DNA of 64,000 nt from a virus. The notes beneath the pieces are model-generated. The model was not told the origin of the DNA and ran no database searches. It worked only from the letters and a program-made list of their open reading frames with translations. The position numbers and the translations under genes are program-made. This document shows, piece by piece, positions 1,177-48,675 of the stretch; within the stretch, counting starts at the first letter, position 1, and every line of letters starts with the position of its first letter. The DNA lies in IMG/VR virus record IMGVR_UViG_3300046491_000313, positions 3,684-67,683 of that record; one strand, written 5' to 3'.

Positions 1177-2214
1177 TTACAAGTCATCAAAACCATTGTC
1201 GTCTGAAATTTTCGCATAAGAGCGAGGTTTTGTTTCGAAGAAGTCAGCTTTACTTTCGTTAACATCTTCGTAATACTTAATCCAAGGAATCGGATTTTTT
1301 TCGATACGATCAAACGGCTTTTCGACACCTAATTGGCTAGCTCGTTGATTTGCACGGAACTTTACGTATTCTGAAACGTCATTGATGTTTATACCATCGA
1401 ATTTATTTCCGATAATATGTTCGCTCCACTTAATCTCAAGTTCAGCACCTCGTTTAATCGTTTCTGTTACCCATTTCATATTTTCAGGCGTGTTAAGTTC
1501 AGGGTAATCTTCGAGTAATGCTTGAAACGTTTGAACGAATAAGTTAACGTGAATTAACTCATCTTTATTAATGTAATTAATCATCTGGCTTGTTCCAGAC
1601 ATTTTTCCATTTCGAGCAAGGTTGTAGAAAAATGCGAATCCTGCGTAAAAAAAGAGCCCTTCGAGAAGTACGTCATATACGATTGCTTTCATGAACGTTT
1701 CAGGCGTCTTATTATTCGTGAACTCTTCGTATCCTTCAGCGATGAAATCGTTTCGCTCTCGGATAACAGGATCATGCTTCCAAAATTCGAACACTTGTTC
1801 TTGTTTGTGTTTCGGTACAAGCGATGATAATACGTAAGAATAACTTTGATTGTGAACGACTTCTTGGAATGCAAGAATCGCCATTAATGCATTAAGCGAA
1901 CTATCTGTTAAAAACTCGCTTACTTGCGTAGAGAAATCGGTTTGGATACTGTCAAGGAACGCTAGTAATCCGATTATCTTTAAAAACGTGTCTTGCTCGT
2001 CTTCGGATAATTCGTTCCATTGCTTGATGTCATTCGACATGTTGATCTCACTCGGAATCCAAAAATTCGCTAACATCGATTTATACATCGGATAACTCCA
2101 TTGAAATCGAACATCGTCCCAGTTAAGAACGTTCGAGCTTTCTCCGTTTACAATTTTCGTAGATTTATTAGGCGCTGTGACATCATACAGTTTACGCTTG
2201 TTTAATTCAGTCAT
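1177..2214 (-). CDS. nrdB: ribonucleotide reductase class I beta subunit
   Basis: FWIPSEI, QEVVHNQSY, EGLFFYAGF, DELIH, DFFE motifs. Confidence 0.95.
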   Translation of the reverse strand: MTELNKRKLYDVTAPNKSTKIVNGESSNVLNWDDVRFQWSYPMYKSMLANFWIPSEINMSNDIKQWNELSEDEQDTFLKIIGLLAFLDSIQTDFSTQVSEFLTDSSLNALMAILAFQEVVHNQSYSYVLSSLVPKHKQEQVFEFWKHDPVIRERNDFIAEGYEEFTNNKTPETFMKAIVYDVLLEGLFFYAGFAFFYNLARNGKMSGTSQMINYINKDELIHVNLFVQTFQALLEDYPELNTPENMKWVTETIKRGAELEIKWSEHIIGNKFDGININDVSEYVKFRANQRASQLGVEKPFDRIEKNPIPWIKYYEDVNESKADFFETKPRSYAKISDDNGFDDL

Positions 2215-2579
2215 TATTCGTTTCCTCCGTTTTCATCTGTTCCCCAAATATAAAAGTCTCCGTCTTCTTTAAAAATGACGTCTCCTTTTTTCGGTGGATC
2301 CATCAACATTCTTATACGATCTTTCTTTTCGTGAAGCCAGCGTTGGTTTGTTTGTACGAGCCACATTCCGTTTGGTGTTTCTAGCGTAACGAAAGGACTT
2401 GTATCGTGGACGGAAAGTTCAACGCCATCTACAACGTATTTAAACGGATACTTTTTTATAAAGGTTTCTTCTTCTATTTCGTTTGTATATTCTATTTCCG
2501 CTTCAATCGATGAAACATTCGCTAATAACTTACCATTAGCGTAAACGTGCATTTTTGTTCCGTTTACTTCCATAACCAT
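2214..2579 (-). CDS. hypothetical protein
   Basis: ORF track; start moved to ATG 2579 after AAGGAGTGG RBS. Confidence 0.6.
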   Translation of the reverse strand: MVMEVNGTKMHVYANGKLLANVSSIEAEIEYTNEIEEETFIKKYPFKYVVDGVELSVHDTSPFVTLETPNGMWLVQTNQRWLHEKKDRIRMLMDPPKKGDVIFKEDGDFYIWGTDENGGNE

Positions 2580-2629
2580 ATTCGACCACTCCTTATTTAG
2601 TATGTAGAGGAGCCGAAGCCCCTCGTTTA

Positions 2630-3544
2630 TTAACTTGCACAACTCTCACATTCATCGATGACTACCGCAGTAGAACGAACATAATAGGTCGTTTTCAGGC
2701 GGTTTTTCCACGCTGCAAGGTGTAAGTCGAGTAAATCTTTCGCTTTAATATCGTTTTTCACGTAAATATTAAATGATTGCGATTGATCGACATGTCGTTG
2801 TCTTGCTGCGTTTTGCTTAATCGACCAGTGTTGATCGACTTCATACGCATTTTTGTAAAACCAAAATGTTTTCGCTGAAAGATGAGGTGCAGTGACTGGG
2901 ATCTTAAAATCTTTCTTTTCTTCCGTGTACTGACGCTTGAATACAGGATCGATTGAAGCAGAACCGCCCGTCAGAATACTCGTACTTGCATTTGGCGCCA
3001 CGGCAATTAAATAGCCATTACGAATACCGTTTTCTGCAATTTCTTTCGAAAGGTTAGCCCATTTTTCGTCAGCATATCCTCTTCGTTCGAAATACTTGCC
3101 TGTTTGCCATTCAGAACCTTCAAACATCGGGAACGATCCTTTTTCTTTCGCTAGATTCATTGAAGCTTGAATCGTTAAGAATGCGATACGTTCGTATAGT
3201 TTGTCAGCATATTCGACAGCTTCTTCGCTTTCCCATTTAATACCTTTAACTGCAAGAAGTTCATGCCAACTAAACGTACCTAAACCAACAGCGCGGTATT
3301 TCTGATTCGTTAATTGCGCTTGTAATACTTCAATCGTATTTAGTCCGATTACATTGTCGAGCATTCTCACTTGAATCGGAATTAAACGATCTAACACATC
3401 TTCCTGACCTACTGCTCGTCCTAGGTGAACCGAAGATAGATTACATACGACGAAATCTCCTGGGTTTTTCGTGATAACGATTTTACCATCTTCCGTCTTC
3501 TCTTCGATAACCGTTGTAGCGGACATATTTTGTAAAATTTCGCT
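2630..3544 (-). CDS. nrdA: ribonucleotide reductase alpha subunit, exon 4
   Basis: SEILQ...VCNLSS...AVAPNASTS...KTTYYVR...ECESCAS. Joins in frame to SNLC of exon 3. Confidence 0.95.
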   Translation of the reverse strand, partial: SEILQNMSATTVIEEKTEDGKIVITKNPGDFVVCNLSSVHLGRAVGQEDVLDRLIPIQVRMLDNVIGLNTIEVLQAQLTNQKYRAVGLGTFSWHELLAVKGIKWESEEAVEYADKLYERIAFLTIQASMNLAKEKGSFPMFEGSEWQTGKYFERRGYADEKWANLSKEIAENGIRNGYLIAVAPNASTSILTGGSASIDPVFKRQYTEEKKDFKIPVTAPHLSAKTFWFYKNAYEVDQHWSIKQNAARQRHVDQSQSFNIYVKNDIKAKDLLDLHLAAWKNRLKTTYYVRSTAVVIDECESCAS

Positions 3545-4557
3545 CATTTGTGTTCAACGAGATTCGCTACTTCTCGCCCGACTGCTATTAGCAATCCGCT
3601 GTATATCACTATACAGATCAGACTATATCACGTTCTCATTGAGAACCCTACCGTTTCGGAACGCTTGTCCCTACTCTCTTTCGAGATAGTCGTTGCACGT
3701 TTTTCTTTGCTAGAAATCGTAATTTTTCGATACATGTAACCATGTATTTTTATATTTTATACTCTCTACTAAACCCGTGTCCTTTAGATTTAGCAAGCGT
3801 GTTATCTCGATATTAGATTTTCTTTTCTCTAACAACCTACATACACTTTCCACTAACTCTACTGAGTAAATGGAATTAGGGTGTTCTTCTCCAATTTTAA
3901 ATAGGTTGTTCTTAATAGCGTGATCAATATTTTCTTGATGACTGACCCACTCTAAGTTAAGAAAACTATTGTCTTTTTTGTTGCCGTTTAAGTGATTTAC
4001 CTGTAACTTTTCAGAATCCGCTATAGGATCGAAAGCCAGTAATACAAGGCGATGTACCAGATATTTTTTCTCTGTTTCACCGTAAAGAGTTACAGTACTG
4101 TATCCGTGATTATTAACATAAGGCTTTAATAGCGTATTCGTTTTCGTATTAATTACTCTTCCTTTGTTACTCACTGAGTAGTCACCGTAAGATAAAGGTA
4201 AACTTACCAACTGTTCATCTTCCATAGGTTCAAAGTTCAATTTCTTGCGTTTTAAACCGAGTTTTTTAAGCTCAGTTGCTACTTTCGCGGATCCAACACC
4301 GAATTTTTCTGCTAATTCTTTATTAGTCATGGTTTGAAAATTATCTTTAAGAAAAACTAAGTCAATAGGTTTTCTTTCCTTCCTTTTGTGCATTTTATCA
4401 CCTCCTTATTTTAGTAGGACACTAGCAAAGAAACTTCGCTCAAGATTGTCTTTTTCATTATAATGTATTTTAGATACTTTATTAAAAATAAAAAAGATTT
4501 TCCTTGAATTAGATAGGTTATTCGATACGGATCGCTCCGTAAAGGTGCTAGCATTTA
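3545..4557 (-). ncRNA. group I intron 3 of nrdA (1013 nt) carrying an HNH homing endonuclease
   Basis: Exon ends ...UGU, P1 GUGU/GCAC with U.G pair; core CAACGACUA and GAUAUAGUC (P7); terminal G at 3545; splicing restores SNLC|SEI. Confidence 0.93.
3710..4393 (-). CDS. intron-encoded NUMOD4/HNH homing endonuclease
   Basis: YSVSNKGRV, LVHRLV, VNHLNGNKKDN..NLEWVS..EN; own AAGGAGGTGA RBS; looped out by 12-bp stem 4422-4433/3702-3713. Confidence 0.9.
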   Translation of the reverse strand: MHKRKERKPIDLVFLKDNFQTMTNKELAEKFGVGSAKVATELKKLGLKRKKLNFEPMEDEQLVSLPLSYGDYSVSNKGRVINTKTNTLLKPYVNNHGYSTVTLYGETEKKYLVHRLVLLAFDPIADSEKLQVNHLNGNKKDNSFLNLEWVSHQENIDHAIKNNLFKIGEEHPNSIYSVELVESVCRLLEKRKSNIEITRLLNLKDTGLVESIKYKNTWLHVSKNYDF

Positions 4558-5004
4558 ACACAAGTTACTAGAATAAATCATTCCTGCGTGTTTTAAAGGA
4601 TTCATTCGATTAACTTCGTCCCTGTATAGCATGTACGGAGTTCCAGTTTCAAGCTGTGAACGCATAATACGTTTCATGATCTCAATCGCTGGAACACGTT
4701 CCTTTGATAAGTCGTTGTTGTTTACGCATTCTTCATACTTTTCTCGGAAACTACCTTTACCGCGTTCTTCATCGTAGAAGTCTTGTAAGTAGTAACCCAT
4801 TTTCGTTTTTACTTCGTGAGGATCGAATAAATAGAAATCTTCACGTTTTTCGACTTTTTCCATGAAAATATCAGGAAGGCAAACGCCTGTGAAGATATCG
4901 TGGAATCGTTGTCTTTCGTCACCGTTGTTTAATCGACCATCTAAGAAAGAAAAGATATCTTTGTGCCAGATGTCGAGGTAAACAGCGATACTACCTTGTC
5001 GTGA
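4558..5004 (-). CDS. nrdA: ribonucleotide reductase alpha subunit, exon 3 (149 codons)
   Basis: SRQGSIAVYLDIWHKDI...ETGTPY...IYSSNLC. Confidence 0.93.
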
Positions 5005-5254
5005 CCTTGTGTTCGATTAAGTTCGCTACGCTTAACCCGTTCATTTAAGAACCGCTGTATATCGCTATACAGAGCAGACTATCTCTTTACCTTTTCAGGT
5101 ATCCCCCGTTTCGTGCTGCTTAGCACTACGTCTTTCGACTAGTCGTTACACTTTTTCTAGCTAACTAGAACTTAGCTCGGTATTGTCTTAAAAAGATTTT
5201 CACCGAATTAGAGGGATTTTCGATACGAGTTTCTTCGTAAAGGGGCTACGTTTA
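5005..5254 (-). ncRNA. group I intron 2 of nrdA (250 nt, ORF-less)
   Basis: P1 GGGU/GCCC; UAACGACUA and GAGAUAGUC core; terminal G; splicing restores DQLG|SRQG. Confidence 0.92.
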
Positions 5255-5381
5255 ACCCAACTGGTCCACGCTAACAGCTGTATTGTTGAGCTGCTTTATC
5301 CACGGCGTTGTTCCTGAAGATACGCCTTTAAATCCTTTAATATCGCTTCCTCGTGACCTTACAAAACCGAGGTACATACCA
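5255..5381 (-). CDS. nrdA: ribonucleotide reductase alpha subunit, exon 2 (127 nt, missed by ORF track)
   Basis: (I)GMYLGFVRSRGSDIKGFKGVSSGTTPWIKQLNNTAVSVDQLG, the specificity-site region. Confidence 0.92.
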
Positions 5382-5642
5382 CATTACCTTCGCATAAGTT
5401 CGCTACACTTACACCGCTTTCGCTGCTACGTGTCACCACGCAGATGAGACTATATCACGATCTCTTATGAGACCCCCTGCTTTTCGAATACCAATCGCTT
5501 GTATTCTACTCTCTTTCGAGATAGTCGTTAGACATTTATGTTTTTCAACAATTTAGTACGGGATTGTCTTAAAATTTTAAGAGTTTCCCCGTTTAACAGG
5601 GTTATTCGATACGGATCACTCCGTAAAGGCACAGGTTAATTT
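5382..5642 (-). ncRNA. group I intron 1 of nrdA (261 nt, ORF-less)
   Basis: P1 GGCAU/GUGCC; UAACGACUA and GAUAUAGUC core; terminal G; splicing restores GGG-I(AT|T)-GMY. Confidence 0.92.
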
Positions 5643-6424
5643 ATGCCGCCACCGTTTTTACTAAGGTTCGCTACATCTGTATTGCTGTCGTAAATGCCTC
5701 GTAAACTATCGTCAACTGTATCGATAAAACAACTCGATAGCTGTCCGTATGATAAACCTGCTGATTTAAGCGTTGGAGTAGCGACTGTCATATACATATT
5801 CGATAACGCCCAGTACGCTTCTTTTACGAGATTTAAACGATCATTCTTTTCTTCTCGCATAAGTGCCATTGCGATAACCAACCAACGTTCTTGAGGTAAC
5901 TCATATACGTTTTTATCGTGGTCTGTTGCAAGATAACGATCAGCTAACGTTCGCAGTCCGATATAGTTGAAAAGAAGATCACGTTCAGGTTCGATAATCT
6001 TACCGATTTCCTTAATCTCTTCTTTATTATAATCGCGAAGAAGTTTTCCATCGTAGATTCCTTTTGTTGCGAGTGTTTTAATTAACCCGTAGAAATCTCC
6101 GTACTTTTCAGAAGAATCGTAGCTTCGATTTTTACTCGCTTTTTTGTAAAGAGAACGAAGGAACACTTGTTCTGCTACGTACGTCCAATCGGGGTGTTGT
6201 TCGGTGTCTGTTCCGATGTAATCAAGCGCGTTTAAGATCAAGTTGTTCGTGATTACACTTGCCTTTACTTCGCTTTTACCTCGAATGGCGTTTAAGTTCT
6301 TTTCGATATACTCATCTTTATTTAAATGAGGGAAACGTCCTGTAATCTCTTCGATAAAACTAATTAATCTCAGTTCATCGAAAGGGAGTTGACGTGTTCC
6401 GTTGTTTTTAGTAATAACGGTCAT
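5643..6424 (-). CDS. nrdA: ribonucleotide reductase alpha subunit, exon 1 (spliced protein 756 aa)
   Basis: ATP-cone-like N-terminus, ELPQER, ATPTL, QLSSCF, SKNGGG. Confidence 0.95.
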
Positions 6425-13103: not shown

Positions 13104-13481
13104 CTACTTAAAAGGTTTTAGCTTTTTCCATTTTGTTTCTGCTTCATGAGGCTTACTCCAATATTCCTGCTGTTGTTTCGTGTTATCGATCATGTACACT
13201 TCATCGTTATACACACCGATAATCACATCTGCCTCTTCTTTCGTATATGATTTACCGTTTCCTTTACGTGAAAAGACGACATAGTACGGGTGTTTCTTAT
13301 CTGTTCGTAGGAGAATCGTTTTCACTTGTCCTTTTAAAAAGAGACCTGTTTCACGATCTTCGATTACTAAATCGTGTGATTCTTCTACTAATGGACGCGA
13401 AACACTATACCCATTATTTAATAAAGCAGCACTTGCGATTAATTGCGATTGTTCCCCTGTAATAGACGTTTGACTCGCCAT
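13104..13481 (-). CDS. free-standing PD-(D/E)xK endonuclease (I-Ssp6803I-like)
   Basis: GE......ALL..GY.VS.P....HDLVI.....L.K.QVKT. Confidence 0.7.
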   Translation of the reverse strand: MASQTSITGEQSQLIASAALLNNGYSVSRPLVEESHDLVIEDRETGLFLKGQVKTILLRTDKKHPYYVVFSRKGNGKSYTKEEADVIIGVYNDEVYMIDNTKQQQEYWSKPHEAETKWKKLKPFK

Positions 13482-14442: not shown

Positions 14443-14820
14443 TTAAATCATAATCCCTAAACTCAACAATAATGCTTGATCGATTTGTTTCATTACTTCT
14501 TTGTTTTTCGATAAATCTCCGACTTTTTCTTTTAGGCGAATTTTGTCGGTTGTATGAATTTGCTCGAGTAAGATCGTGCTGTCTTCATATAAGTGACTAA
14601 CATCTCGTTTTAAATCGACATGCATCGGGTACGAAGAATCTTGACGCTGAGTTGATATAGCTGCGACAATCGTTGTCGGACTGTACGCGTTTCCTACATC
14701 GTTTTGAATAATGATTACAGGACGGTTTTTACACTGTTCAGAACCTGTACCTTTTTTAAATTCGCAGATATAAACTTCTCCACGTTTGATTTGTCTCGGT
14801 TTTGATTTTTGTTTTTTCAT
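14443..14820 (-). CDS. PemK/MazF-family endoribonuclease (orphan)
   Basis: KRGEVY, GSEQ..RPVIIIQNDVGNAYSPTTIVAAIS, DSTILLEQI.T.DK.RL. Confidence 0.9.
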   Translation of the reverse strand: MKKQKSKPRQIKRGEVYICEFKKGTGSEQCKNRPVIIIQNDVGNAYSPTTIVAAISTQRQDSSYPMHVDLKRDVSHLYEDSTILLEQIHTTDKIRLKEKVGDLSKNKEVMKQIDQALLLSLGIMI

Positions 14821-14872
14821 TATGTACTTCCTCCATTTAATAGTTTCATTGTTCGATAATCGGGTAAATGAA

Positions 14873-15568
14873 TTATAGATACGTTTCGATATCTCCGAAT
14901 TCAAGTACCGCTTCTTCATTATAGTAATCTTTTAATTTCATAATACGACGACGAGCGGTTGAGTTTGAAATCCCTAAACGATTAGCAACTTTCAAAATAT
15001 TCTTGTCACTACCGTCATCATTTAACCAGTTTTGAACGATTTTCGTTGTTATTTCATCGCCTGAGCATTCTACTAAATACGTAATAATCGCTCTTCTTGT
15101 ATCAGCGTTTGCATGTTTAACGAAAAGTTCTTCGTCACCTTTAACGGCTTGTCCTGAAAGTTTTGTAAGCGTATCTGTTTCGCTTGTGTCGTTATCTCCT
15201 TTTTTAGAAGAAACGGTATCAACTAATCCTACGCGTTTGCTTTTGCGATTATTATTTCGAAGTAAGTTTTTACGTAAATTTTTAGCAGCGTTAGAATACA
15301 TGTTAACGAAATCTCCGCCTCTAAACTTTTTAATTACGTTCATAAACGTATCGGCGTATAATGCTTCTACGTCCCATTGATCAGCTAGTAATCCTTGTGC
15401 TGTTAGGTGGTAATCGCGTTTTAATGTGTTGTGAATAAGTATGTAAAGTTCGTTTTGAAGTTCTTCTTTTCTTTCTGGTAAAGTCGTTTCTGAAATAATT
15501 TCTTCTGCCATTGGATTGATGATCCCTTTTAATTTTGTTAATTTATTACTCAAAATTGTTACCCCCAT
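14873..15568 (-). CDS. phage sigma-70-like factor
   Basis: Region-2-like D.EAL..DTF...I.KF...DF and C-terminal HTH ILKVANRLGISNSTARRRI. Confidence 0.6.
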   Translation of the reverse strand: MGVTILSNKLTKLKGIINPMAEEIISETTLPERKEELQNELYILIHNTLKRDYHLTAQGLLADQWDVEALYADTFMNVIKKFRGGDFVNMYSNAAKNLRKNLLRNNNRKSKRVGLVDTVSSKKGDNDTSETDTLTKLSGQAVKGDEELFVKHANADTRRAIITYLVECSGDEITTKIVQNWLNDDGSDKNILKVANRLGISNSTARRRIMKLKDYYNEEAVLEFGDIETYL

Positions 15569-22563: not shown

Positions 22564-22986
22564 GTGATGGAAATGGCAAAAAATAATAATAACAAAATTG
22601 ACTCAAATAGTGTAGCTTGGAAACAAAACTTTTTAAATGTTTTCAAAGGAATTAAGCAATGGAATTTTTGGGGAGGTTCTAAACAATCGTATCTTTTACA
22701 TCTTCCTGAAGAAGTACATACATTAGCGAAAAAGGATTTAGAAAAAATCTTCGCAAACTTTTCCGATATGGATCCGAAAAAACGAGAACTAACACTTCGT
22801 AAGTATTTTACGATTCACATTATGGTTTCGATGGGTATGACGCACTATAACGATAAGGAAAAGAAATTTGAACGATTAAATAAAACGGACTTGATGGAAT
22901 CGTTTCTAAAAGTACATTCGAGTCAGCTTGAAGATGATTTTGGTTATGTCCGCGATCGTTCTCGTAAAAAAGATAAAAGCGAATAA
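22564..22986 (+). CDS. hypothetical protein, candidate DNA-binding regulator
   Basis: Lone plus-strand ORF with AAGGGGTGA RBS downstream of the palindrome array. Confidence 0.65.
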   Translation: MMEMAKNNNNKIDSNSVAWKQNFLNVFKGIKQWNFWGGSKQSYLLHLPEEVHTLAKKDLEKIFANFSDMDPKKRELTLRKYFTIHIMVSMGMTHYNDKEKKFERLNKTDLMESFLKVHSSQLEDDFGYVRDRSRKKDKSE

Positions 22987-23078
22987 CACTCGCTTTTTTT
23001 TTCTGTACTATAACACAAAAAAAAGACACCGACTATTTTCTCTCGGTATCTTCTACTTACGTATCCAACTTATCCATT

Positions 23079-23291
23079 TTACACCTTTTCCGTTTCGTAT
23101 TTAAATTCTTGTTGAAGTCGTAGCAATGCTGCTTCATATGCAATCGCTTGGGCTTCGTAAAACACTCTCATTCCGTTTTCTGCTTCTCTCGAATTTTTTC
23201 GCATATCTTGCGCCATCTTTTCGAAGTGTTTAATCGTATCCTCTATTTTCGCTCCTCTGAACGCTCTTTCTCTAAATGGTCTTGAACTCAT
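23079..23291 (-). CDS. hypothetical protein
   Basis: ORF track; start after GGGAGG. Confidence 0.55.
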   Translation of the reverse strand: MSSRPFRERAFRGAKIEDTIKHFEKMAQDMRKNSREAENGMRVFYEAQAIAYEAALLRLQQEFKYETEKV

Positions 23292-23323
23292 GGTTATCAA
23301 CCTCCCTATTTTGTATAAACTTA

Positions 23324-23581
23324 TTATACCATACAATTAACATTTGTCAACAATTCCCTTAATATTTCCTTTTTATGTTTTTCTAACGACTTCTCACGCC
23401 TCATGATGTACTCTGTATCGCTAATATCAATTTGTCTATAAATATGATATGGTTCGGTATAGTTTTTAAACGTTAATATAAAAGTATCCTTATAGTTATC
23501 GCCAATCTCGAACAGAATTTCTACCTCTCCGTCAATCGGGTCAACTTCGCATATTTCAACGTTTCGTAATCGGAATTGCAT
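23324..23581 (-). CDS. hypothetical protein
   Basis: ORF track; start after AAGGAGG. Confidence 0.55.
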   Translation of the reverse strand: MQFRLRNVEICEVDPIDGEVEILFEIGDNYKDTFILTFKNYTEPYHIYRQIDISDTEYIMRREKSLEKHKKEILRELLTNVNCMV

Positions 23582-36608: not shown

Positions 36609-36928
36609 TTAAGGAGTAGCGTTTGTGTCTCCATGAATTGCGTCAACGATTTCGAATCCGCTAAACTGGAACTCCCACTCTTCCTCAACTAGGGAGCCCA
36701 CTTCGAAATTCATTACAGGAATACCCGTAAATTGGACCCCTTTCAATCTGACGCGATAAACTTCAGCATTATATGCCTCAGGATCTGCGATCTTCGCCAT
36801 GATTTCGCAAACGTAAGGTTTACCTGTGTCAGACATGATTGAACCTACTTGCTCGATTAATTCAGAAGATACGCGGTACCCTGAAATCGAACCTGAACCT
36901 GTTAATGAAGTGGTTTTGTATCCAATCC
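36609..36928 (-). CDS. tail tube protein (XkdM-like), exon 2
   Basis: (W)IGYKTTSLTGSGSISGYRVSS...DPEA...L.GV.F...VEEE..F. Confidence 0.9.
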
Positions 36929-37169
36929 CAAATTTGTTATCGCTAGGCTTTTTATCCTAACTTCTACTAGTCGCCTAGTAGTTCGGCGTACATTTTATTC
37001 CTGTAAGGAATTCGGACACTCTTGGGAGAATTATCGCTTCCATAACGCTCATCTCCTACGCTCTACAATGCTAGCGGTCTGCTAGTTATCTCGGAGTTGT
37101 CTTCGTGAGATTTTCTCCGATTTTGCCCGATTATCATTAGTAAATTACTCTACTAAGCGGCAGATGTTT
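36929..37169 (-). ncRNA. group I intron in tail tube gene (241 nt, ORF-less)
   Basis: P1 CGGU/GCCG; variant P7 GCGUA/UACGC; terminal G; splits a T|GG Trp codon; spliced protein 152 aa. Confidence 0.88.
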
Positions 37170-37308
37170 ACCGTGTTCCACTTCGTTGAACTTCTTCAGT
37201 ATTGATTTCTACTTTTGCTTCGATAGACGTGATGTTTGTCAACCAAACTCCGTCCATCCAAACTTCTCCAAACGACCCATTGAGTACGCGAGTTGCGTCC
37301 ATTGCCAT
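37170..37308 (-). CDS. tail tube protein (XkdM-like), exon 1 (missed by ORF track)
   Basis: MAMDATRVLNGSFGEVWMDGVWLTNITSIEAKVEINTEEVQRSGTR with GAGGGG RBS. Confidence 0.9.
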
Positions 37309-42343: not shown

Positions 42344-43162
42344 TTAATTTTCTATATCTTTTTCAGAAATACCTCGAATGTAGTGATGACAATTGGGGTG
42401 GAAGCATTCTTTGGTTGCTTTTATACTTTCGTACGTCGGATAATTTCCTGGAATACTTTCATCTAGTTTTACGATTCTCCCAATCCAATCGTTGCAAGCA
42501 TCTTTTGCTGTTGGTCCTGCGATAATCCCGAATTTGTTTCCTCGAGCAATTCCTTCGTTAATCGCTGCTTCATTTAATGCTGTCATTACTTTCGTTTGAG
42601 CAACTACTCTCGCATACGTCTCTGGTTGCCACGTTCTACCTACCTTATCGACGAACCCGCTTTTAACAGACTGTTTAACGGCTTCTGCGATACGCTGGCG
42701 CTGTTTTTGTAGCTCTGGAAGGTCTAAGGGACTACCTAAAAAACGACGTCTTAGAGAGGCATTTACAGCTTCTCGAAGGGCAGCATCTGTTTTCGTACTC
42801 ATTGTTCGAATAATTGTACGGAAATCGTTCTTCATTTCGCGTGTTAATCGTTTGATTAAACCTTTTTGCAAGTGGTTAAGTGTAAGTTCTCCAACCGTAA
42901 TGCTTAGTGAAGCAAGATAAAGTAAAACCCCTGCTTCTACAACTGCAGGGATTAACTCATCTGTTTTTTCATCTAAGTCTTTAATAGAGACCTCAAGAAT
43001 ACGATTGATTTCTCGAATCGTTTTATCGACATCCCCATTGTTGATGGAAAGAAGGTCTAACGCATCGATTTCGCCCAAAATTCTTTGAATGCTTAAACCG
43101 AATACTTGTTCGATTTCACGTATTTGTTTATCGTATTTTTGTTGGAAATCTAATTCATTCAT
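42344..43162 (-). CDS. minor capsid / head morphogenesis protein
   Basis: FVDK.GRTW..ETYA, C..W.G, FHPNCHH. Confidence 0.8.
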   Translation of the reverse strand: MNELDFQQKYDKQIREIEQVFGLSIQRILGEIDALDLLSINNGDVDKTIREINRILEVSIKDLDEKTDELIPAVVEAGVLLYLASLSITVGELTLNHLQKGLIKRLTREMKNDFRTIIRTMSTKTDAALREAVNASLRRRFLGSPLDLPELQKQRQRIAEAVKQSVKSGFVDKVGRTWQPETYARVVAQTKVMTALNEAAINEGIARGNKFGIIAGPTAKDACNDWIGRIVKLDESIPGNYPTYESIKATKECFHPNCHHYIRGISEKDIEN

Positions 43163-43173
43163 ACGCTATCCTC

Positions 43174-43872
43174 CTAGTTTGTTTTTTCGTCCGATCCCGA
43201 CGAATTCGAATCCTGCGCAGGTTCCGCTGGAAGTTCGTTAAAAACGTCAGGAGTTGCGGCTAACGCCTGCTCCTGTCTCGCTTTTTTCTCTACTTCGATA
43301 CGATCTACGATTTCTTGTGCTTGATCATCATTTAAGTTGTCCGAGCGTTTAATCGCAGAAAGAGTATCAAGCGTAGTTGCTCCGTTTGTACGAATCGCCA
43401 TGATTTCCGCTTCTTCTTTCTCGTCTTTTGGAATACCGTCTTTCCACGTTACCTTTGGATAAACTGCTTCGTAAGATTCGAACCCTTTTACGTTCTCATT
43501 CGCTTTAATTTCAAGTAATTGAGCAGCATAAAGAGCATCTCGAACCGTTTTATCGAGATGTAGTCGAATACGATTTACTTTTGATGTGATTGGCATGAAA
43601 CGAGCACGAATAGCAGATCCATCACTATGCGACGTACCTGAACCCCCTGTATCAGCTGTTAATACCGTTCCGAATAACCACTGAGGCGTTTCTGCTTTCA
43701 TGAATACAAGACCTAATAACGTATCTAATTCACGGAATGCTGAATCAAGTTGCGCTTCCCAAACCATATAACCAGGTTTTTGGTCGTCTTTATCAAGCGG
43801 AATGTATTTACCACCCCACGGCGTTCCCGCTGTTCCGTTTGCATTTGATAAATCAGGTCCATAAGCTGTAGG
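43174..43872 (-). CDS. portal protein, exon 2
   Basis: PTAYGPDL...PGYMVWEAQL...ETPQWLFG...W.DG.P.D. Confidence 0.88.
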   Translation of the reverse strand, partial: PTAYGPDLSNANGTAGTPWGGKYIPLDKDDQKPGYMVWEAQLDSAFRELDTLLGLVFMKAETPQWLFGTVLTADTGGSGTSHSDGSAIRARFMPITSKVNRIRLHLDKTVRDALYAAQLLEIKANENVKGFESYEAVYPKVTWKDGIPKDEKEEAEIMAIRTNGATTLDTLSAIKRSDNLNDDQAQEIVDRIEVEKKARQEQALAATPDVFNELPAEPAQDSNSSGSDEKTN

Positions 43873-44192
43873 CTTTACCTTCGAGTAAGGTCGTTACCCT
43901 TACCCCGTTCCCTAACGAACCGCTACAAGCTTTCCTTGTAGAAGAGACTATATCTTCGGTAAGCTTCCTTATACCGTCTCCCGTTTCGAGTTCACTTGAA
44001 CCCTACGTCTTTCGACTAGTCGTTGAACGTTCCTCATATCTCGTCAGACTTAGAGGCTTCGCTGCTGATTTCCCATCGTGCCTATCCTTTTTATTTTTGA
44101 CCATCACGCTTGTCGTTTCCAACTACGTTGTGGTTAAAAAGTTTTTAGGGTGTTCCAGCAATTAGAGAGATTTAACGCGAACCAGTGTGTTA
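43873..44192 (-). ncRNA. group I intron in portal gene (320 nt, ORF-less)
   Basis: 7-bp P1 CGCGGAU/GUUCGCG; CAACGACUA and AAGAUAUAGUC core; terminal G; splicing restores KHAD|PTAYGP. Confidence 0.92.
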
Positions 44193-45161
44193 ATCCGCGT
44201 GTTTCCAAAGAATGTATGAGATTTGTGTAAGACGGTCATTAATCGCAGCAAGTAAATCCGAAATAACCTCTACTAAACTCATACCTTGCCATTCTGTATC
44301 AATCGCAGAATAAGGTGCATGAAATAAAAGCGGCATTGGTACGCCTGTTTCGACAATATTCTTCTTGTTTTCTGCTTGGCGTCCAGTATCGACTAAATCA
44401 CCGATTTTATAAACAGGGATCTGAATACCATAATCCATGTTAAGGTCAAACTCGTTTAATTGGAATTTGTGGAAGAAGATATACCCTGGAATATGGCGCT
44501 CTACGTAAAGGTAAGGCGTTCTTCCTGTTGTAATCAACTGGATATTGTTCTTTTCCAACGCTTCATCACGTAAATCGAAAGGATTATACGGATCAGCGAT
44601 TCCAAGTGAATCTTCGTATTGAACATAAGCAACGTTTACCGCTTTAAAACTTTTCGCATTCTTCCCGCTTTCTTCAGGGAATACGTAGTTTGGGTTAACT
44701 GCTTCGATGATACTTTCCATTGGAACCGTGTCGGGAATTTCTCCGCCGAATGCTAATAGCTCGGAAAAGTCTTGTCGATACCCATAACGTACTTTTAACC
44801 ACATATCTCCACGGAATGCTCCGCTTGTCCCAATATCGTGTAAAAGACTCGTTAAATCGTTTTCTTCTGCTAAGCGATTGACAGCGTCCTGAGAAGCTCC
44901 AGATTGCCCGCTCTCGAACACAGGAGGCTCGCCAACTAATAGGTCTGCAGGCTTCTGGGAAAGCATCTGAACGACGTTTACAGCCGTGTAGAGCTTACGT
45001 AACTGAGGAGCATGCTTCGACTCTTTTAAAAGTGCTTGTGCGCGGTTATATAAATCTTGTAAATCCTTCCCTTTGTAAATACGTTCACCTTTTTGATATT
45101 TAGCGATACGTTCGATATCTTTTTGTGGCGGGAACTGTTTACCCGTTTCGAATAATGCCAT
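44193..45161 (-). CDS. portal protein (SPP1-like), exon 1; spliced protein 555 aa
   Basis: FPP...ERI..Y, ADLLVGEPP, G.S......L..INDRLTQ...IL.KHAD; synteny. Confidence 0.88.
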
Positions 45162-45652
45162 TATTTCTCCTCCTCAAAATCCTCTAGTAATAAAGTATCT
45201 GTGTCCGCTTCTTCTTTTTCCCCTTCTTCTTCGGGTGCTTCGATTAATAGGTCGAGTTCTTTCATACCTAGCAAAATATCTTCGTTAGAACGGTTGATTA
45301 CTTCCGTTTCTACTCGGTGGACTTCACTTAATAACCCGAATCTCTTAAAGTATAAATCTAACGCCTTTACGGACGGCTGATCGCCACTGATTGATTTCAT
45401 TAACTGACGATAAGCGAAAGAACGTTTTGCTTCGAAGAAATCATCGGCAATCAAGTTTACGTAATCGATAAAATCCTTGTCTTGTGTACGCCATCTATAC
45501 AAAGACATTCGGGATACTTTTATTTCTTGAGCCAATTCCTCCAAAGACATACGCTCTCTATCAGGTAACTCCAAATCGTTTTCCACTAACAAAACGGCAG
45601 CCTTTCGTTGCTGCAGTGTTAATCTCGCTTCTAATTCTTTTTTTGTAGCCAT
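45161..45652 (-). CDS. HTH protein, putative terminase small subunit (phBC6A51-like)
   Basis: L...QRKAA.LLV, ELAQEIKVSRMSLYRWR, PSVKALDL; start after GGAGG. Confidence 0.7.
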   Translation of the reverse strand: MATKKELEARLTLQQRKAAVLLVENDLELPDRERMSLEELAQEIKVSRMSLYRWRTQDKDFIDYVNLIADDFFEAKRSFAYRQLMKSISGDQPSVKALDLYFKRFGLLSEVHRVETEVINRSNEDILLGMKELDLLIEAPEEEGEKEEADTDTLLLEDFEEEK

Positions 45653-45667
45653 TCCATTTCCTCCCAT

Positions 45668-45931
45668 ACCGTATTCAAGTTTTCGGACGAACCGTTCTTT
45701 GTTACTCATTCTATTTCTTTTCTTTTAGCATTTTATATAACCTTTTGCTTACATACGTTCGTATGATATTTAATGTTTTCTATCGCGAATAGTATTACTT
45801 GTAATACAGTTCGCAATATATTATTACTACATTCAGTTATTACTACCTTTAGTTATTACTACACTTAGTTATTACTAATATGGCACTTTCACGTATCCGT
45901 CGAACACGTATTCGTGAAAACCGTATCCGCG
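45668..45931. repeat. iteron/hairpin element, copy B
   Basis: 45778-45931 aligns ungapped to 20611-20764 (135/154 identical by hand count); 22-mer at 45668 matches 20507 with one mismatch. Confidence 0.85.
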
Positions 45932-47700: not shown

Positions 47701-47760
47701 AAGGTATTTCCTCCTTTTGAATTACTCTGTCAAATTATTGAAAAATTTGACAAAAAAATG

Positions 47761-47789
47761 TTGACAAAATGTAACATCTCTACTACAAT
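47761..47789 (+). promoter_or_regulatory. sigma-A promoter for recombinase
   Basis: TTGACA-N17-TACAAT. Confidence 0.65.
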
Positions 47790-47862
47790 AAGTATAACGA
47801 GTAGGGGTAATTTTTTACTTTTACGTGTATTTACTCATAAAATTGACTGGGAGGTGGTAGAT

Positions 47863-48675
47863 ATGAGTACAAAAAATGAAACACAAGAAATGATGACACT
47901 TTTAAGTGAAATGATGACGAAGTTAAACGCGATGGAAGAGAAAAACATGAAGCTCCAAGAGGAGCTTGAGAAAATTACAGTTAAAAAAAGTCGAAATAAG
48001 TCAAAAAAAGCAAAAAAGAATAAATCAGACATACGCAAAACGCAGCCGATTAAAGATCTCGATACATATAATAACTTTTTGAACGTATTAAAGCCGAGAG
48101 ACCGCTTAATGTGCTTAATCGGTATCGCTTCTGCTCTTCGTATTGGCGATATCATCATTCTTCGCCGCAAAGATGTAGTAGATGAGTCGGGAGTAATTCG
48201 TATTACAGAATACGGGCAAGAAAAAACGTATAAAGAAACGAATGTAGTGTTTGGTGATGAGTTTTCCGCAGAAATTCGCGACCTGCTTGATGAGCTTTCG
48301 ATTACCGAGGATAATCAGTTATTGTTCGCAAGTCAAAAGCTTGATGAGTTCGGTAATCCAAAACCAATTAGCCGTCAGCAAGCGTGGAACATTATCACCG
48401 CCGCCGCTATTAAGATTGGTGTAAGAAAACGTGACAGCGACGGTAAGTTAGTTGGACTTCGTTTAGGTTCGCATAGTTTACGTAAAACATTTTCATTTTG
48501 GTTTTATACGGTTAATTCGGAAAAAGGTAGAGCAGCTGAAGCTCTTGCGTATTTAACGAAGATTTTGAACCATTCAGATCCAGCGGTAACTCTTCGTTAT
48601 ATTGGAATCGAGCAAGAGAAAATCGAGGAAGGTCAAGTTGCAACGCACAACGCATTAAAGCGTACAAGAGGTTAA
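47863..48675 (+). CDS. tyrosine recombinase (catalytic domain with N-terminal coiled coil)
   Basis: LRIGDI, EKT, ISRQQAW, HSLRKT, LNHS...TLRY; start after GGGAGGTGG. Confidence 0.9.
   Translation: MSTKNETQEMMTLLSEMMTKLNAMEEKNMKLQEELEKITVKKSRNKSKKAKKNKSDIRKTQPIKDLDTYNNFLNVLKPRDRLMCLIGIASALRIGDIIILRRKDVVDESGVIRITEYGQEKTYKETNVVFGDEFSAEIRDLLDELSITEDNQLLFASQKLDEFGNPKPISRQQAWNIITAAAIKIGVRKRDSDGKLVGLRLGSHSLRKTFSFWFYTVNSEKGRAAEALAYLTKILNHSDPAVTLRYIGIEQEKIEEGQVATHNALKRTRG

Follow-up and report, generated by a model that had tools for sequence, protein, structure and literature searches.

A compact group I intron in the portal gene of a Bacillales-like phage, probably a sporadic selfish insertion

Why does a phage genome rated 100% complete appear to carry its portal gene in two pieces, and is the element between them a switch on virion production or a parasite? 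The locus lies in a 64,000-nt stretch (hereafter the window; positions 3,684 to 67,683) of IMG/VR record IMGVR_UViG_3300046491_000313, a metagenome-assembled 67.7-kb myovirus-type phage from soil whose relatives are of Bacillales type. Gene callers break its portal into a 323-aa and a 197-aa ORF, both labelled 'hypothetical'. An earlier note, made from the letters alone, placed a group I intron between them and proposed that splicing acts as a physiological checkpoint, with selfish persistence as the null explanation.

On the minus strand of the window, the Rfam group I model RF00028 matches positions 43923-44217 with 78.4 bits (gathering score 50, E=3.1e-18) over its full length, model positions 1-253, and a whole-genome Rfam search recovered the same match. 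The score lies 28 bits above the curated cut-off, and all core segments align at high posterior probability. No other Rfam family appears in the region at E≤0.1, and IStron features (a TnpB/OrfB gene or RNA remnants) are absent. Neither strand of 43873-44192 contains an ORF of at least 40 aa; the intron accordingly has no homing endonuclease ORF and stands outside the endonuclease-bearing mobile introns.

The anatomy of the element is collected in Table 1, where we take the core helix names from the Rfam consensus and from group I nomenclature; the 3′ region is drawn from the end of the Rfam alignment and a local fold of intron positions 262-320. Two extra hairpins, P7.1 and P7.2, separate P7 from P3 3′; such hairpins are typical of subgroup IA, and by them the intron is of the phage IA type. 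The exact subgroup (IA2) is not certain, P2 being absent from the Rfam alignment, and Rfam holds no subgroup models for group I introns. Among group I introns of viruses, the majority are IA2 according to one published account (PMC11835236).

The 5′ splice site is marked by P1, which is found in the minimum-free-energy and centroid folds alike. All 8 of its 8 positions pair (10 bp when two intron-internal pairs are included), with the final exon U opposite G; the pairing in the earlier note holds, and its length of 7 bp becomes 8 bp here. At the other end, the join after the terminal G (omega-G) at 43873 is in frame. For P10, a helix that many group I introns can do without, inspection suggests a weak pairing of 1-3 possible base pairs; the 3′ splice site is therefore placed by the terminal G and by homology. 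Two other 3′ ends were rejected: G 43879 would add two residues (VK) carried by 0 of 124 relatives' loci, and G 43923, where the Rfam model ends, would put the exons out of frame. As judged from sequence, this is confirmed as a genuine group I intron whose boundaries are set by P1, the terminal G and a gapless join, and the 320-nt length, canonical core and terminal G first described for it all stand. We would expect it to splice in vivo.

Table 1 Features of the intron, the interrupted portal gene and other genes named in the text (window coordinates)
Feature	Position	Strand	Remarks
Group I intron	43873..44192	-	320 nt, between codons Asp323 and Pro324; terminal G; placed by Rfam RF00028, P1 and gapless join
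In-frame UAA (TAA) stop	44190..44192	-	First codon of the intron; ribosomes on unspliced RNA would terminate here, at the 5′ splice site
P1 helix	44175..44200	-	Exon strand ACGCGGAU (44200-44193) and internal guide GUUCGCGU (44182-44175)
Catalytic core	43946..44170	-	P3, J3/4, P4, P6, P7, P8, P7.1, P7.2; RF00028 alignment
P3	44165-44170 / 43977-43982	-	
P4	44155-44159 / 44064-44068	-	
P5 extension, long hairpin	44094..44140	-	Intron positions 53-99; insertion in the Rfam alignment; local fold
P7	44017-44021 / 43946-43950	-	
P7.1 hairpin	44007-44016	-	GUCGAAAGAC; between P7 5′ and P3 3′
P7.2 hairpin	43988-44003	-	GGGUUCAAGUGAACUC; between P7 5′ and P3 3′
3′ region	43873..43941	-	P9 hairpin 43923-43941; two more hairpins at about 43883-43920; terminal G 43873
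Portal exon 1	44193..45161	-	ATG at 45161; 323 codons; C-terminal end ...ILWKHAD; ORF listing
Portal exon 2	43174..43872	-	232 codons and stop; N-terminal PTAYGPD; translation
Upstream neighbour	45164-45709		HTH_Tnp_1_2 / terS-like protein
Downstream neighbour	42347-43162		Minor capsid protein
HNH_3/NUMOD4 gene	3713-4393		One of the only two endonuclease-like genes in the window
PDDEXK_5 gene	13107-13481		The other endonuclease-like gene

Both flanking reading frames belong to a portal protein. Exon 1 matches Pfam PF05133 (SPP1_portal) with 30.6 bits (cut-off 25.5) and the portal family phrog_533 with E=4e-15, and shares 42-45% identity with proteins annotated as portal in three phage records. 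Exon 2 matches phrog_533 with E=1.3e-14 over profile positions 323-486 of 495 and is 50-63% identical to C-terminal portal fragments; alone, it scores 15.9 bits against PF05133, below the cut-off. Joined in silico, the exons give a 555-aa SPP1-type portal that aligns gaplessly across the junction with two portals lacking the intron, those of Bacillus phage KLEB27-1 and Sporosarcina phage Lietuvens (ILWKHSDPTAYGP / ILWKHSDPHMYGP). The predicted 555-aa product and the in-frame TAA at the intron start, both proposed earlier, are correct. The predicted ligated-exon junction reads ...AAACACGCGGAT/CCTACAGCTTATGG... (...GCGGAT/CCTACA...) and the predicted protein junction ...ILWKHAD-PTAYGPDLSNANGTAGTPWGGK (ILWKHAD/PTAYGP), slashes marking the join. 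Both exons are open, and each retains residues that are invariant in the family, for example D 0.97, P 1.0, G 1.0 and P 1.0 near the junction. Membership among SPP1 Gp6-like portals (PF05133) is indicated by the exon 1 profile score and by the portal fold of a homologue model: the AlphaFold model of the homologue P0003 (50% identical, pLDDT 69.3) matches the solved portals of 80alpha (8v8b, E=8e-12), phiCD508 (9gb3) and SPP1 (7z4w) with probability 1.00. A PDB profile search with portal homologues gave only a weak match, to 9gb3 (E=0.0014) that begins just past the junction.

We then turned to the distribution of the intron. A survey of portal homologues had been suggested with the checkpoint idea, and among 126 related loci, 124 of which span the site (two end before it), none holds an intron or any other insertion there (0/124). 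The spanning loci represent 118 of 120 distinct records, six contigs being counted twice. At the protein level, an effect of the intron is absent from all 119 homologues among the matches listed (the best 119 non-self matches of 434); 118 of these are at least 496 aa long, and the single 423-aa protein reads through the site. Two short C-terminal ORFs, P0139 and P0140, were considered as split portals and rejected; their loci run uninterrupted across the site, so the short ORFs are gene-calling artefacts, and both begin at an internal Met, as does the 197-aa ORF of the window. The site itself is strongly conserved: a 12-aa window on the junction ranks 15th of 544 (top 3%), with a conservation of 0.919 against a mean of 0.689. 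The guide sequence fits its own exon at 8 of 8 positions and fits fully at the sites of 8 of 124 relatives.

Nearer material was scarce. No close relatives of exon 1 were found in viral_contigs or metagenome_contigs, and a megablast of the portal gene against phage records returned 55-144-nt stretches of intron core only. None of seven sequencing runs listed for the stretch is an RNA run. Contigs from four DNA sequencing runs were short, none bridging the intron or joining the exons across the site. Run X1 contains identical stretches, among them 151 nt of intron interior, and may be the source sample; run X3, of soil and rhizosphere material, contains a relative about 90% identical, whose coverage excludes the junctions.

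Related ribozymes are widespread. Core stretches 66-79% similar to the portal intron occur in 357 phage records, and at least 103 viral contigs contain one 18-nt word of the core. The best full-length phage match, in Enterococcus phage EF1, is 71% identical over 91% of the query and adjoins an HNH gene; in Bacillus phage BpSp, a 68% match lies in a topoisomerase/gyrase gene. Introns of 73-77% identity over intron positions 30-177 were found in metagenomes, and the 26-nt core of the P5 extension recurs exactly in 44 metagenome loci with related introns. Of 40 ORFs upstream of the metagenome introns, 23 belong to phrog_16088, and all four of those tested against Pfam are flagellin. Group I introns in flagellin genes have been published in Geobacillus. 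These bacterial introns share the same exact 26-nt word with the portal intron; they differ in residing in a bacterial chromosomal gene, their 3′ halves cannot be aligned with that of the portal intron by blastn, and tblastn gave 0 matches linking the flagellin-type metagenome introns to a portal. Neither phage records nor metagenome loci yielded an intron above about 77% identity over more than half of the portal intron's length, and therefore no donor can be named. The introns elsewhere in the same genome were also considered as donors and rejected, as none is close to the portal intron.

A portal gene is absent from the 108 ORFs that flank related introns (68 viral and 40 metagenomic). Likewise, no 'portal' feature underlies an intron-like match among the best 60 of the 357 phage records; most introns in such records lie in unannotated gaps, so missing 'portal' features say little. 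Phage IA-type introns include those of T4 td, Twort nrdE and the SPO1 DNA polymerase gene, and Twort nrdE is itself among the phage-record matches (H103). The portal intron shares with this type the RF00028 match, P7.1 and P7.2 between P7 and P3 3′, and a conserved coding site. The classic phage IA introns sit mostly in genes of DNA metabolism, and many of them encode a homing endonuclease; the window intron lies in a structural gene and has no such ORF.

Closer parallels come from Bacillus cereus-group prophages, for which group I introns have been described in tape measure, large terminase and tail tube genes (Tourasse & Kolsto 2008, PMC2504315). Those introns, like the one in the window, are small, mostly ORF-less and in frame within virion or packaging genes of Bacillales phages; they are sporadic among related phages, and many open with a stop codon, a described trait of the group (PMC2504315). 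The tail-tube intron of the window phage adds to the likeness. A portal as host gene sets the window intron apart from those of the survey, in whose text the word 'portal' occurs 0 times (PMC2504315).

The earlier note had called the portal an unusual host gene. The flanking ORFs bear this out, and our searches of the literature turned up no validated case of such an intron in a portal; the wording was nonetheless too strong, since split portal genes are reported for the Silviavirus phages Remus/Romulus, KSAP7 and StAP1 (PMC7497331). The portal of Jug phage is also described as fragmented, which may or may not reflect an intron. In the Silviavirus phages too the portal gene is broken by a mobile element that needs removal at the RNA level. 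In StAP1, the portal halves (PF04860 profile positions 49-192 and 200-319) lie 627 nt apart, and the insert gives a sub-threshold RF00028 match (28.9 bits, E=3.8e-5) and a RAGATH-18 RNA (60.6 bits). In Romulus, an IS605 OrfB gene interrupts the region annotated 'similar to portal protein', where Rfam finds no group I intron. The Silviavirus portals differ from that of the window in family (PF04860 against PF05133) and insertion site, and their inserts either contain a TnpB/OrfB transposon module or originate from one, in contrast to the clean, compact, above-threshold ribozyme described here. The portal is a rare host gene for group I introns, yet not unprecedented.

This small, temperate-looking phage carries five introns: besides the one in the portal, the gene for the large subunit of ribonucleotide reductase (RNR) has three and the tail-tube gene has one. 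Two of the RNR introns match Rfam with 81.1 bits (5055-5264) and 66.8 bits (5426-5652); the third has weak Rfam halves and contains the HNH_3/NUMOD4 ORF. The RNR exons cover positions 1-32, 33-74, 75-212 and 222-523 of Pfam Ribonuc_red_lgC. In the tail-tube gene (PF09393), exon 1 at 37171-37308 covers profile positions 2-45 and exon 2, within 36612-36956, covers positions 45-139, with a weak Rfam group I match of 21.4 bits between them. Exon coverage and Rfam matches together show the proposed tube and RNR (nrdA) introns to be real, the tail-tube match being the weak one. They also support the reading that head, tail and dNTP-supply proteins are gated by splicing, in that full-length portal, tail-tube and RNR large-subunit proteins would form only after ribozyme removal of the introns. 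The five are weakly alike; between the portal and RNR introns, the best match is 48 nt at 83%.

Taken together, we consider it very likely that the portal gene of this 67.7-kb Bacillales-like phage holds a 320-nt, ORF-less, IA-type intron acquired as a sporadic selfish insertion into an SPP1-type portal. Absence from relatives, a conserved target and the described leading-stop trait fit such an insertion, and neither its placement in a conserved block nor the stop codon at its start is more than a generic feature among mobile group I introns. We infer both the chemistry and the mode of acquisition as follows. The portal gene would be transcribed together with the intron, and ribosomes on unspliced RNA would halt at the intron-opening UAA and so be kept off the ribozyme fold. 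The ribozyme would then fold, guanosine attacking the 5′ splice site that the U·G pair of P1 marks, after which the freed exon 1 would attack past the terminal G to leave a ligated mRNA for the 555-aa portal. The intron would have been gained in the lineage of the host phage alone, in a part of the gene under strong conservation, where the stem helix is predicted to end and the clip region to follow. Lacking an endonuclease of its own, it would now be stranded or would move only with help in trans, be it an endonuclease supplied by a co-infecting phage, recombination, or reverse splicing.

An intron without an ORF, at a target among the most conserved stretches of its gene, such as homing endonucleases recognise, in a genome with HNH_3/NUMOD4 and PDDEXK_5 genes, could also have been copied in once a co-infecting phage's free-standing endonuclease had cut the WKHxD/PTAYGP site, and could now protect the portal gene as an orphan or immunity device. 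The collaborative homing model pairs an ORF-less intron with an adjacent free-standing endonuclease, as in psbA/F-CphI of cyanophage S-PM2. Here, however, no endonuclease gene adjoins the portal gene, and with 0 of 124 spanning loci holding an intron at the site, no donor population is in view; we regard this origin as improbable.

The checkpoint would tie splicing of the portal, tube and RNR transcripts to guanosine/GTP, Mg2+, temperature or translation rate, throttling virion production in a poor host. Three functional modules do need splicing, and splicing of T4 introns is reported to be linked to translation and host growth state (Sandegren & Sjoberg 2007; Ohman-Heden 1993). A review argues for co-evolution of introns and hosts (PMC3073962). 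Against this, the portal intron is missing from 124 of 124 spanning loci and from 119 of 119 listed homologues, so that selection has not retained it in the portal family, where it does not count as a conserved regulatory element. Beyond the standard core no sensing element turned up, and five introns that are only weakly alike look like separate arrivals, not one system. The checkpoint is thus unsupported and, in our judgement, highly improbable; selfish persistence, once offered as its null, is the better reading given the sporadic distribution and the generic mobile-intron traits.

For a single 68-kb genome, five introns spread over three functional modules are nonetheless a heavy load, which a purely neutral view leaves unexplained. 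Conceivably, they form a co-adapted set, whose common reliance on guanosine, on Mg2+ and on the traffic of ribosomes would tie nucleotide supply, tail and head assembly to host physiology, the portal UAA coupling translation to splicing; this is hard to credit, and if true it would make the set a ribozyme-based late-gene checkpoint rather than five independent parasites. A ribozyme that has lost splicing within a portal pseudogene, as a weak P10, a missing P2 and a metagenome-assembled record might hint, can practically be dismissed in view of the core aligned throughout at high posterior and 28 bits over the cut-off, the open exons with their invariant residues, the genome rated complete, and the inability of a tailed phage without a portal to form DNA-filled heads.

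The portal intron opens no new mechanism. A checkpoint, if shown, would matter much more, and nothing here points to one. What the selfish intron adds is a clean, above-threshold group I ribozyme in the portal, a host gene seldom documented with introns. Split gene calls mask this essential gene and make the phage seem defective; recognition of the intron restores a 555-aa portal.

On the minus strand of the window, the portal gene is interrupted by an ORF-less group I intron. An Rfam scan of the whole window gives three matches above the curated group I cut-off of 50 bits, and one of them, covering the full model, lies in this gene (78.4 bits, E=3.1e-18). The first exon ends at an in-frame TAA with which the intron begins, as the earlier note had described. 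The eight exon bases before this stop, ACGCGGAU, pair at all eight positions with GUUCGCGU, 10 nt into the intron, and the U at the exon end faces a G. This P1 helix is present in both the minimum-free-energy and centroid folds, which upholds the helix first proposed but corrects its length from 7 to 8 bp. At the 3′ end, the Rfam model stops at the P9 hairpin (43923), followed by two further hairpins and a G at 43873, after which exon 2 reads PTAYGPD... Joined in silico, the two exons yield the predicted 555-aa portal, which aligns with no gap at the junction to its intact counterparts in Bacillus phage vB_BauS_KLEB27-1 and Sporosarcina phage Lietuvens (ILWKHAD/PTAYGP in the window, ILWKHSDPTAYGP and ILWKHSDPHMYGP in the relatives). 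Alternative G residues nearby are either out of frame or add VK, which is found in no relative, and the intron is therefore 43873–44192, matching the 320 nt originally suggested. No ORF of at least 40 aa lies inside it. The intron is probably active.

The alignment to the Rfam consensus covers every core segment at high posterior probability. P2 is missing from this alignment, and P10 comprises one to three pairs at most, as judged by eye. P7 is separated from the 3′ strand of P3 by two hairpins that we take to be P7.1 and P7.2 of subgroup IA; Rfam has no subgroup models. According to a database paper, IA2 makes up more than half of viral group I introns (PMC11835236).

Features of the window and elements of the portal intron
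Feature	Coordinates	Strand	Remarks
Portal exon 1	44193-45161	-	ATG 45161, TAA 44192-44190; 323 aa
Portal exon 2	43174-43872	-	stop at 43174
Portal intron	43873-44192	-	320 nt
Rfam group I match	43923-44217	-	full model
P3			UCUCUC / GGGAGA
P4			GCUGG / UCAGC; 1 pair altered on both sides vs consensus
P7			GACUA / UAGUC
Two hairpins			between P7 and 3′ strand of P3
P9 and long P5 extension			located
Portal insertion, residues ~209-238	44460-44540	-	~25 residues
RNR large-subunit gene	2633-6424	-	4 exons: about 5639-6424, 5255-5383, 4558-5016, 2633-3547
Third RNR intron	about 3548-4557	-	weak Rfam halves, 29.6 and 27.7 bits
HNH_3/NUMOD4 endonuclease ORF	3713-4393		in third RNR intron
Tail-tube gene (PF09393)	36609-37308	-	exon 1 37171-37308, exon 2 within 36612-36956
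Tail-tube group I match	36964-37179		weak, 21.4 bits
PDDEXK_5 ORF	13107-13481	-	directly downstream of family A DNA polymerase gene
PemK/MazF-like toxin ORF	14446-14919	-	full domain, E=1.3e-28; amid replication genes
Tyrosine integrase gene	47758-48672	+	Phage_integrase, E=1.4e-18

Both exons belong to a portal. Exon 1 scores above the Pfam SPP1_portal cut-off, and PHROG 533 (portal) is matched by exon 1 (profile 15–159 of 495) and exon 2 (323–486 of 495). The minus-strand gene order of large terminase, terS-like HTH protein, portal, minor capsid protein and scaffold is the same in KLEB27-1. The terminase–portal slot holds a terS-like HTH_Tnp_1_2 gene in these two phages and an HNH endonuclease gene in Lietuvens (2082–3014), where it overlaps the portal start. 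Compared with its KLEB27-1 and Lietuvens counterparts, the portal in the window also carries a short insertion (…LGIADPYNPFDLRDEALEKNNIQLITTGRT…). The window comes from an IMG/VR virus record that is 67,683 bp long and has a completeness rating of 100%, and Pfam identifies a contractile-tail phage (sheath, tube, baseplate J and SU10-type capsid) with a family A DNA polymerase, ribonucleotide reductase (RNR), thymidylate synthase ThyX and a tyrosine integrase. The integrase gene adjoins the large terminase gene divergently, and the phage may be temperate. An ORF with a PemK/MazF-like toxin domain is also present, and the PD-(D/E)XK endonuclease ORF may represent a free-standing homing endonuclease. 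Named portal relatives come from Bacillus, Paenibacillus, Peribacillus, Neobacillus, Fictibacillus and Brevibacillus, and the host is probably a member of the Bacillales.

We searched 5.8 billion proteins with exon 1 (lengths restricted to 177–566 aa, E<=1e-10), obtaining 434 matches, the best 120 of which were examined, one being the window's own. Among the matches listed, 118 of the 119 non-self homologues are 496–561 aa long, and the remaining 423-aa protein reads through ILWKHSDPTAYGPD. Exon 2 retrieved 25 non-self fragments, several with an internal-Met start like that of the window's 197-aa ORF call, so the DNA around relatives of two fragments was examined. The resulting set comprised 126 loci, including three phage records, from 120 distinct records (six contigs are present twice). 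When eight full-length portals were compared by tblastn with these loci and the window, 124 of the 127 sequences gave a single unbroken match; the remaining three were the window, interrupted by its gap of 320 nt, and two loci whose match came in abutting pieces because of frame shifts, with nothing inserted. The junction motif is intact in 95 loci and variant in 29 more. Two loci (L028 and L030) begin downstream of the intron site and were left out of the site-spanning count. An insertion at this site is absent from all 124 loci that span it, and within the data reached only this phage carries the intron.

The intron occupies a conserved site. When the joined product is aligned with 118 full-length homologues, the 12 residues across the junction have a mean conservation of 0.919, versus 0.689 overall (rank 15 of 544), and the junction falls within one of the three best-conserved blocks of the portal. 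An AlphaFold model (mean pLDDT 69.3) of P0003, a homologue with 50% identity, corresponds to solved portal structures with a probability of 1.00. In this model, a long helix (296–316) stops two residues ahead of the junction (D318/P319), and a low-confidence stretch (318–353) precedes the next long helix. By analogy with known portals, we infer that the junction would mark the transition from stem helix to clip. At the DNA level, the sites of the 124 relatives form 89 distinct 30-mers with 15–26 of 30 bases in common with the window site, and all eight P1 pairs are possible at only eight of the 124.

By blastn, the intron core is 66–79% similar in 357 phage records. The best matches are in Enterococcus phage EF1, next to an HNH gene (71% across 91% of the query), and in Bacillus phage BpSp, within a topoisomerase/gyrase gene (68%). 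At least 103 viral contigs contain an 18-nt core word, and 80 of these loci supplied 68 upstream ORFs of at least 40 aa. Pfam names 25 of them (large terminase 11, DNA polymerase A 3, RNR 3, Pol III alpha 2, AAA_24 2, and amidase, capsid, primase and HNH 1 each), and PHROGs names 24 of the 43 left (one unknown family 7, Sak4-like 6, scaffold 3, DNA polymerase 2, RNA polymerase beta 2, sheath 1, capsid 1, other unknowns 2); the final 19 have no match. None of the 68 is a portal. A 26-nt word from the P5 extension occurs at 44 metagenome loci, where introns share 73–77% identity with positions 30–177 of the portal intron or the word alone, and none of these loci encodes the window's portal family. 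Upstream of these introns, 23 of 40 ORFs (metagenome contigs L231–L272) are phrog_16088, and all four tested by Pfam are bacterial flagellins; the other 17 comprise helicase, RNA polymerase beta, FtsK-like, GtrB-like and HNH proteins (1 each) and 12 without a match. In these four flagellins the interruption falls in the C-terminal helical domain (Flagellin_C profile 1–53 of 86). Within the same genome, the best match to another intron is 48 nt at 83%. By similarity, the portal ribozyme is drawn from a common phage and Firmicute pool, and no donor could be named among the phage records, viral contigs, metagenome loci and same-genome introns compared.

Full-text literature searches found no demonstrated portal group I intron. 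For the intron-rich crAss-like and Jug phages, introns are reported in capsid and terminase genes, and the portal of the Jug phages is described as 'fragmented and/or highly divergent' (PMC7886860, PMC12880540). In Romulus, an IS605 OrfB gene interrupts the portal region, where Rfam finds no group I match. In Staphylococcus phage StAP1, portal halves (PF04860 profile 49–192 and 200–319), both annotated merely as hypothetical proteins, lie 627 nt apart (22895–23521); between them is a group I match below the threshold (28.9 bits, E=3.8e-5), with a RAGATH-18 RNA downstream above its cut-off (60.6 bits). The portal had been considered an unusual host gene: it is uncommon, given its absence upstream of the related introns, but the split portals of StAP1 and Romulus show that it is not unprecedented. 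The window intron is a clean new example.

Two further genes of this genome are split. The RNR large-subunit gene contains three group I introns, the first two with Rfam scores of 81.1 and 66.8 bits, and in the tail-tube gene an in-frame TAA directly follows exon 1. Since the RNR, tail-tube and portal genes are all intron-split, dNTP supply, tail and head all rely on splicing for their full-length proteins, as anticipated in the earlier note, which further raised the possibility of a physiological checkpoint on virion production. A T4 study has reportedly already linked phage intron splicing to translation and host growth state. Intron–host co-adaptation is discussed in a review (PMC3073962). 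The checkpoint reading is nevertheless unsupported and unlikely: dependence on splicing does not amount to a checkpoint, because the portal intron is unconserved (124 of 124 loci lack it) and the introns of this genome are not one family. The features noted earlier are generic; introns of the B. cereus group, according to a survey, are in frame, many with a stop codon at the start, and are located in tape-measure, terminase and tail-tube genes (PMC2504315). A sporadic selfish insertion into a conserved site best accounts for the portal intron.
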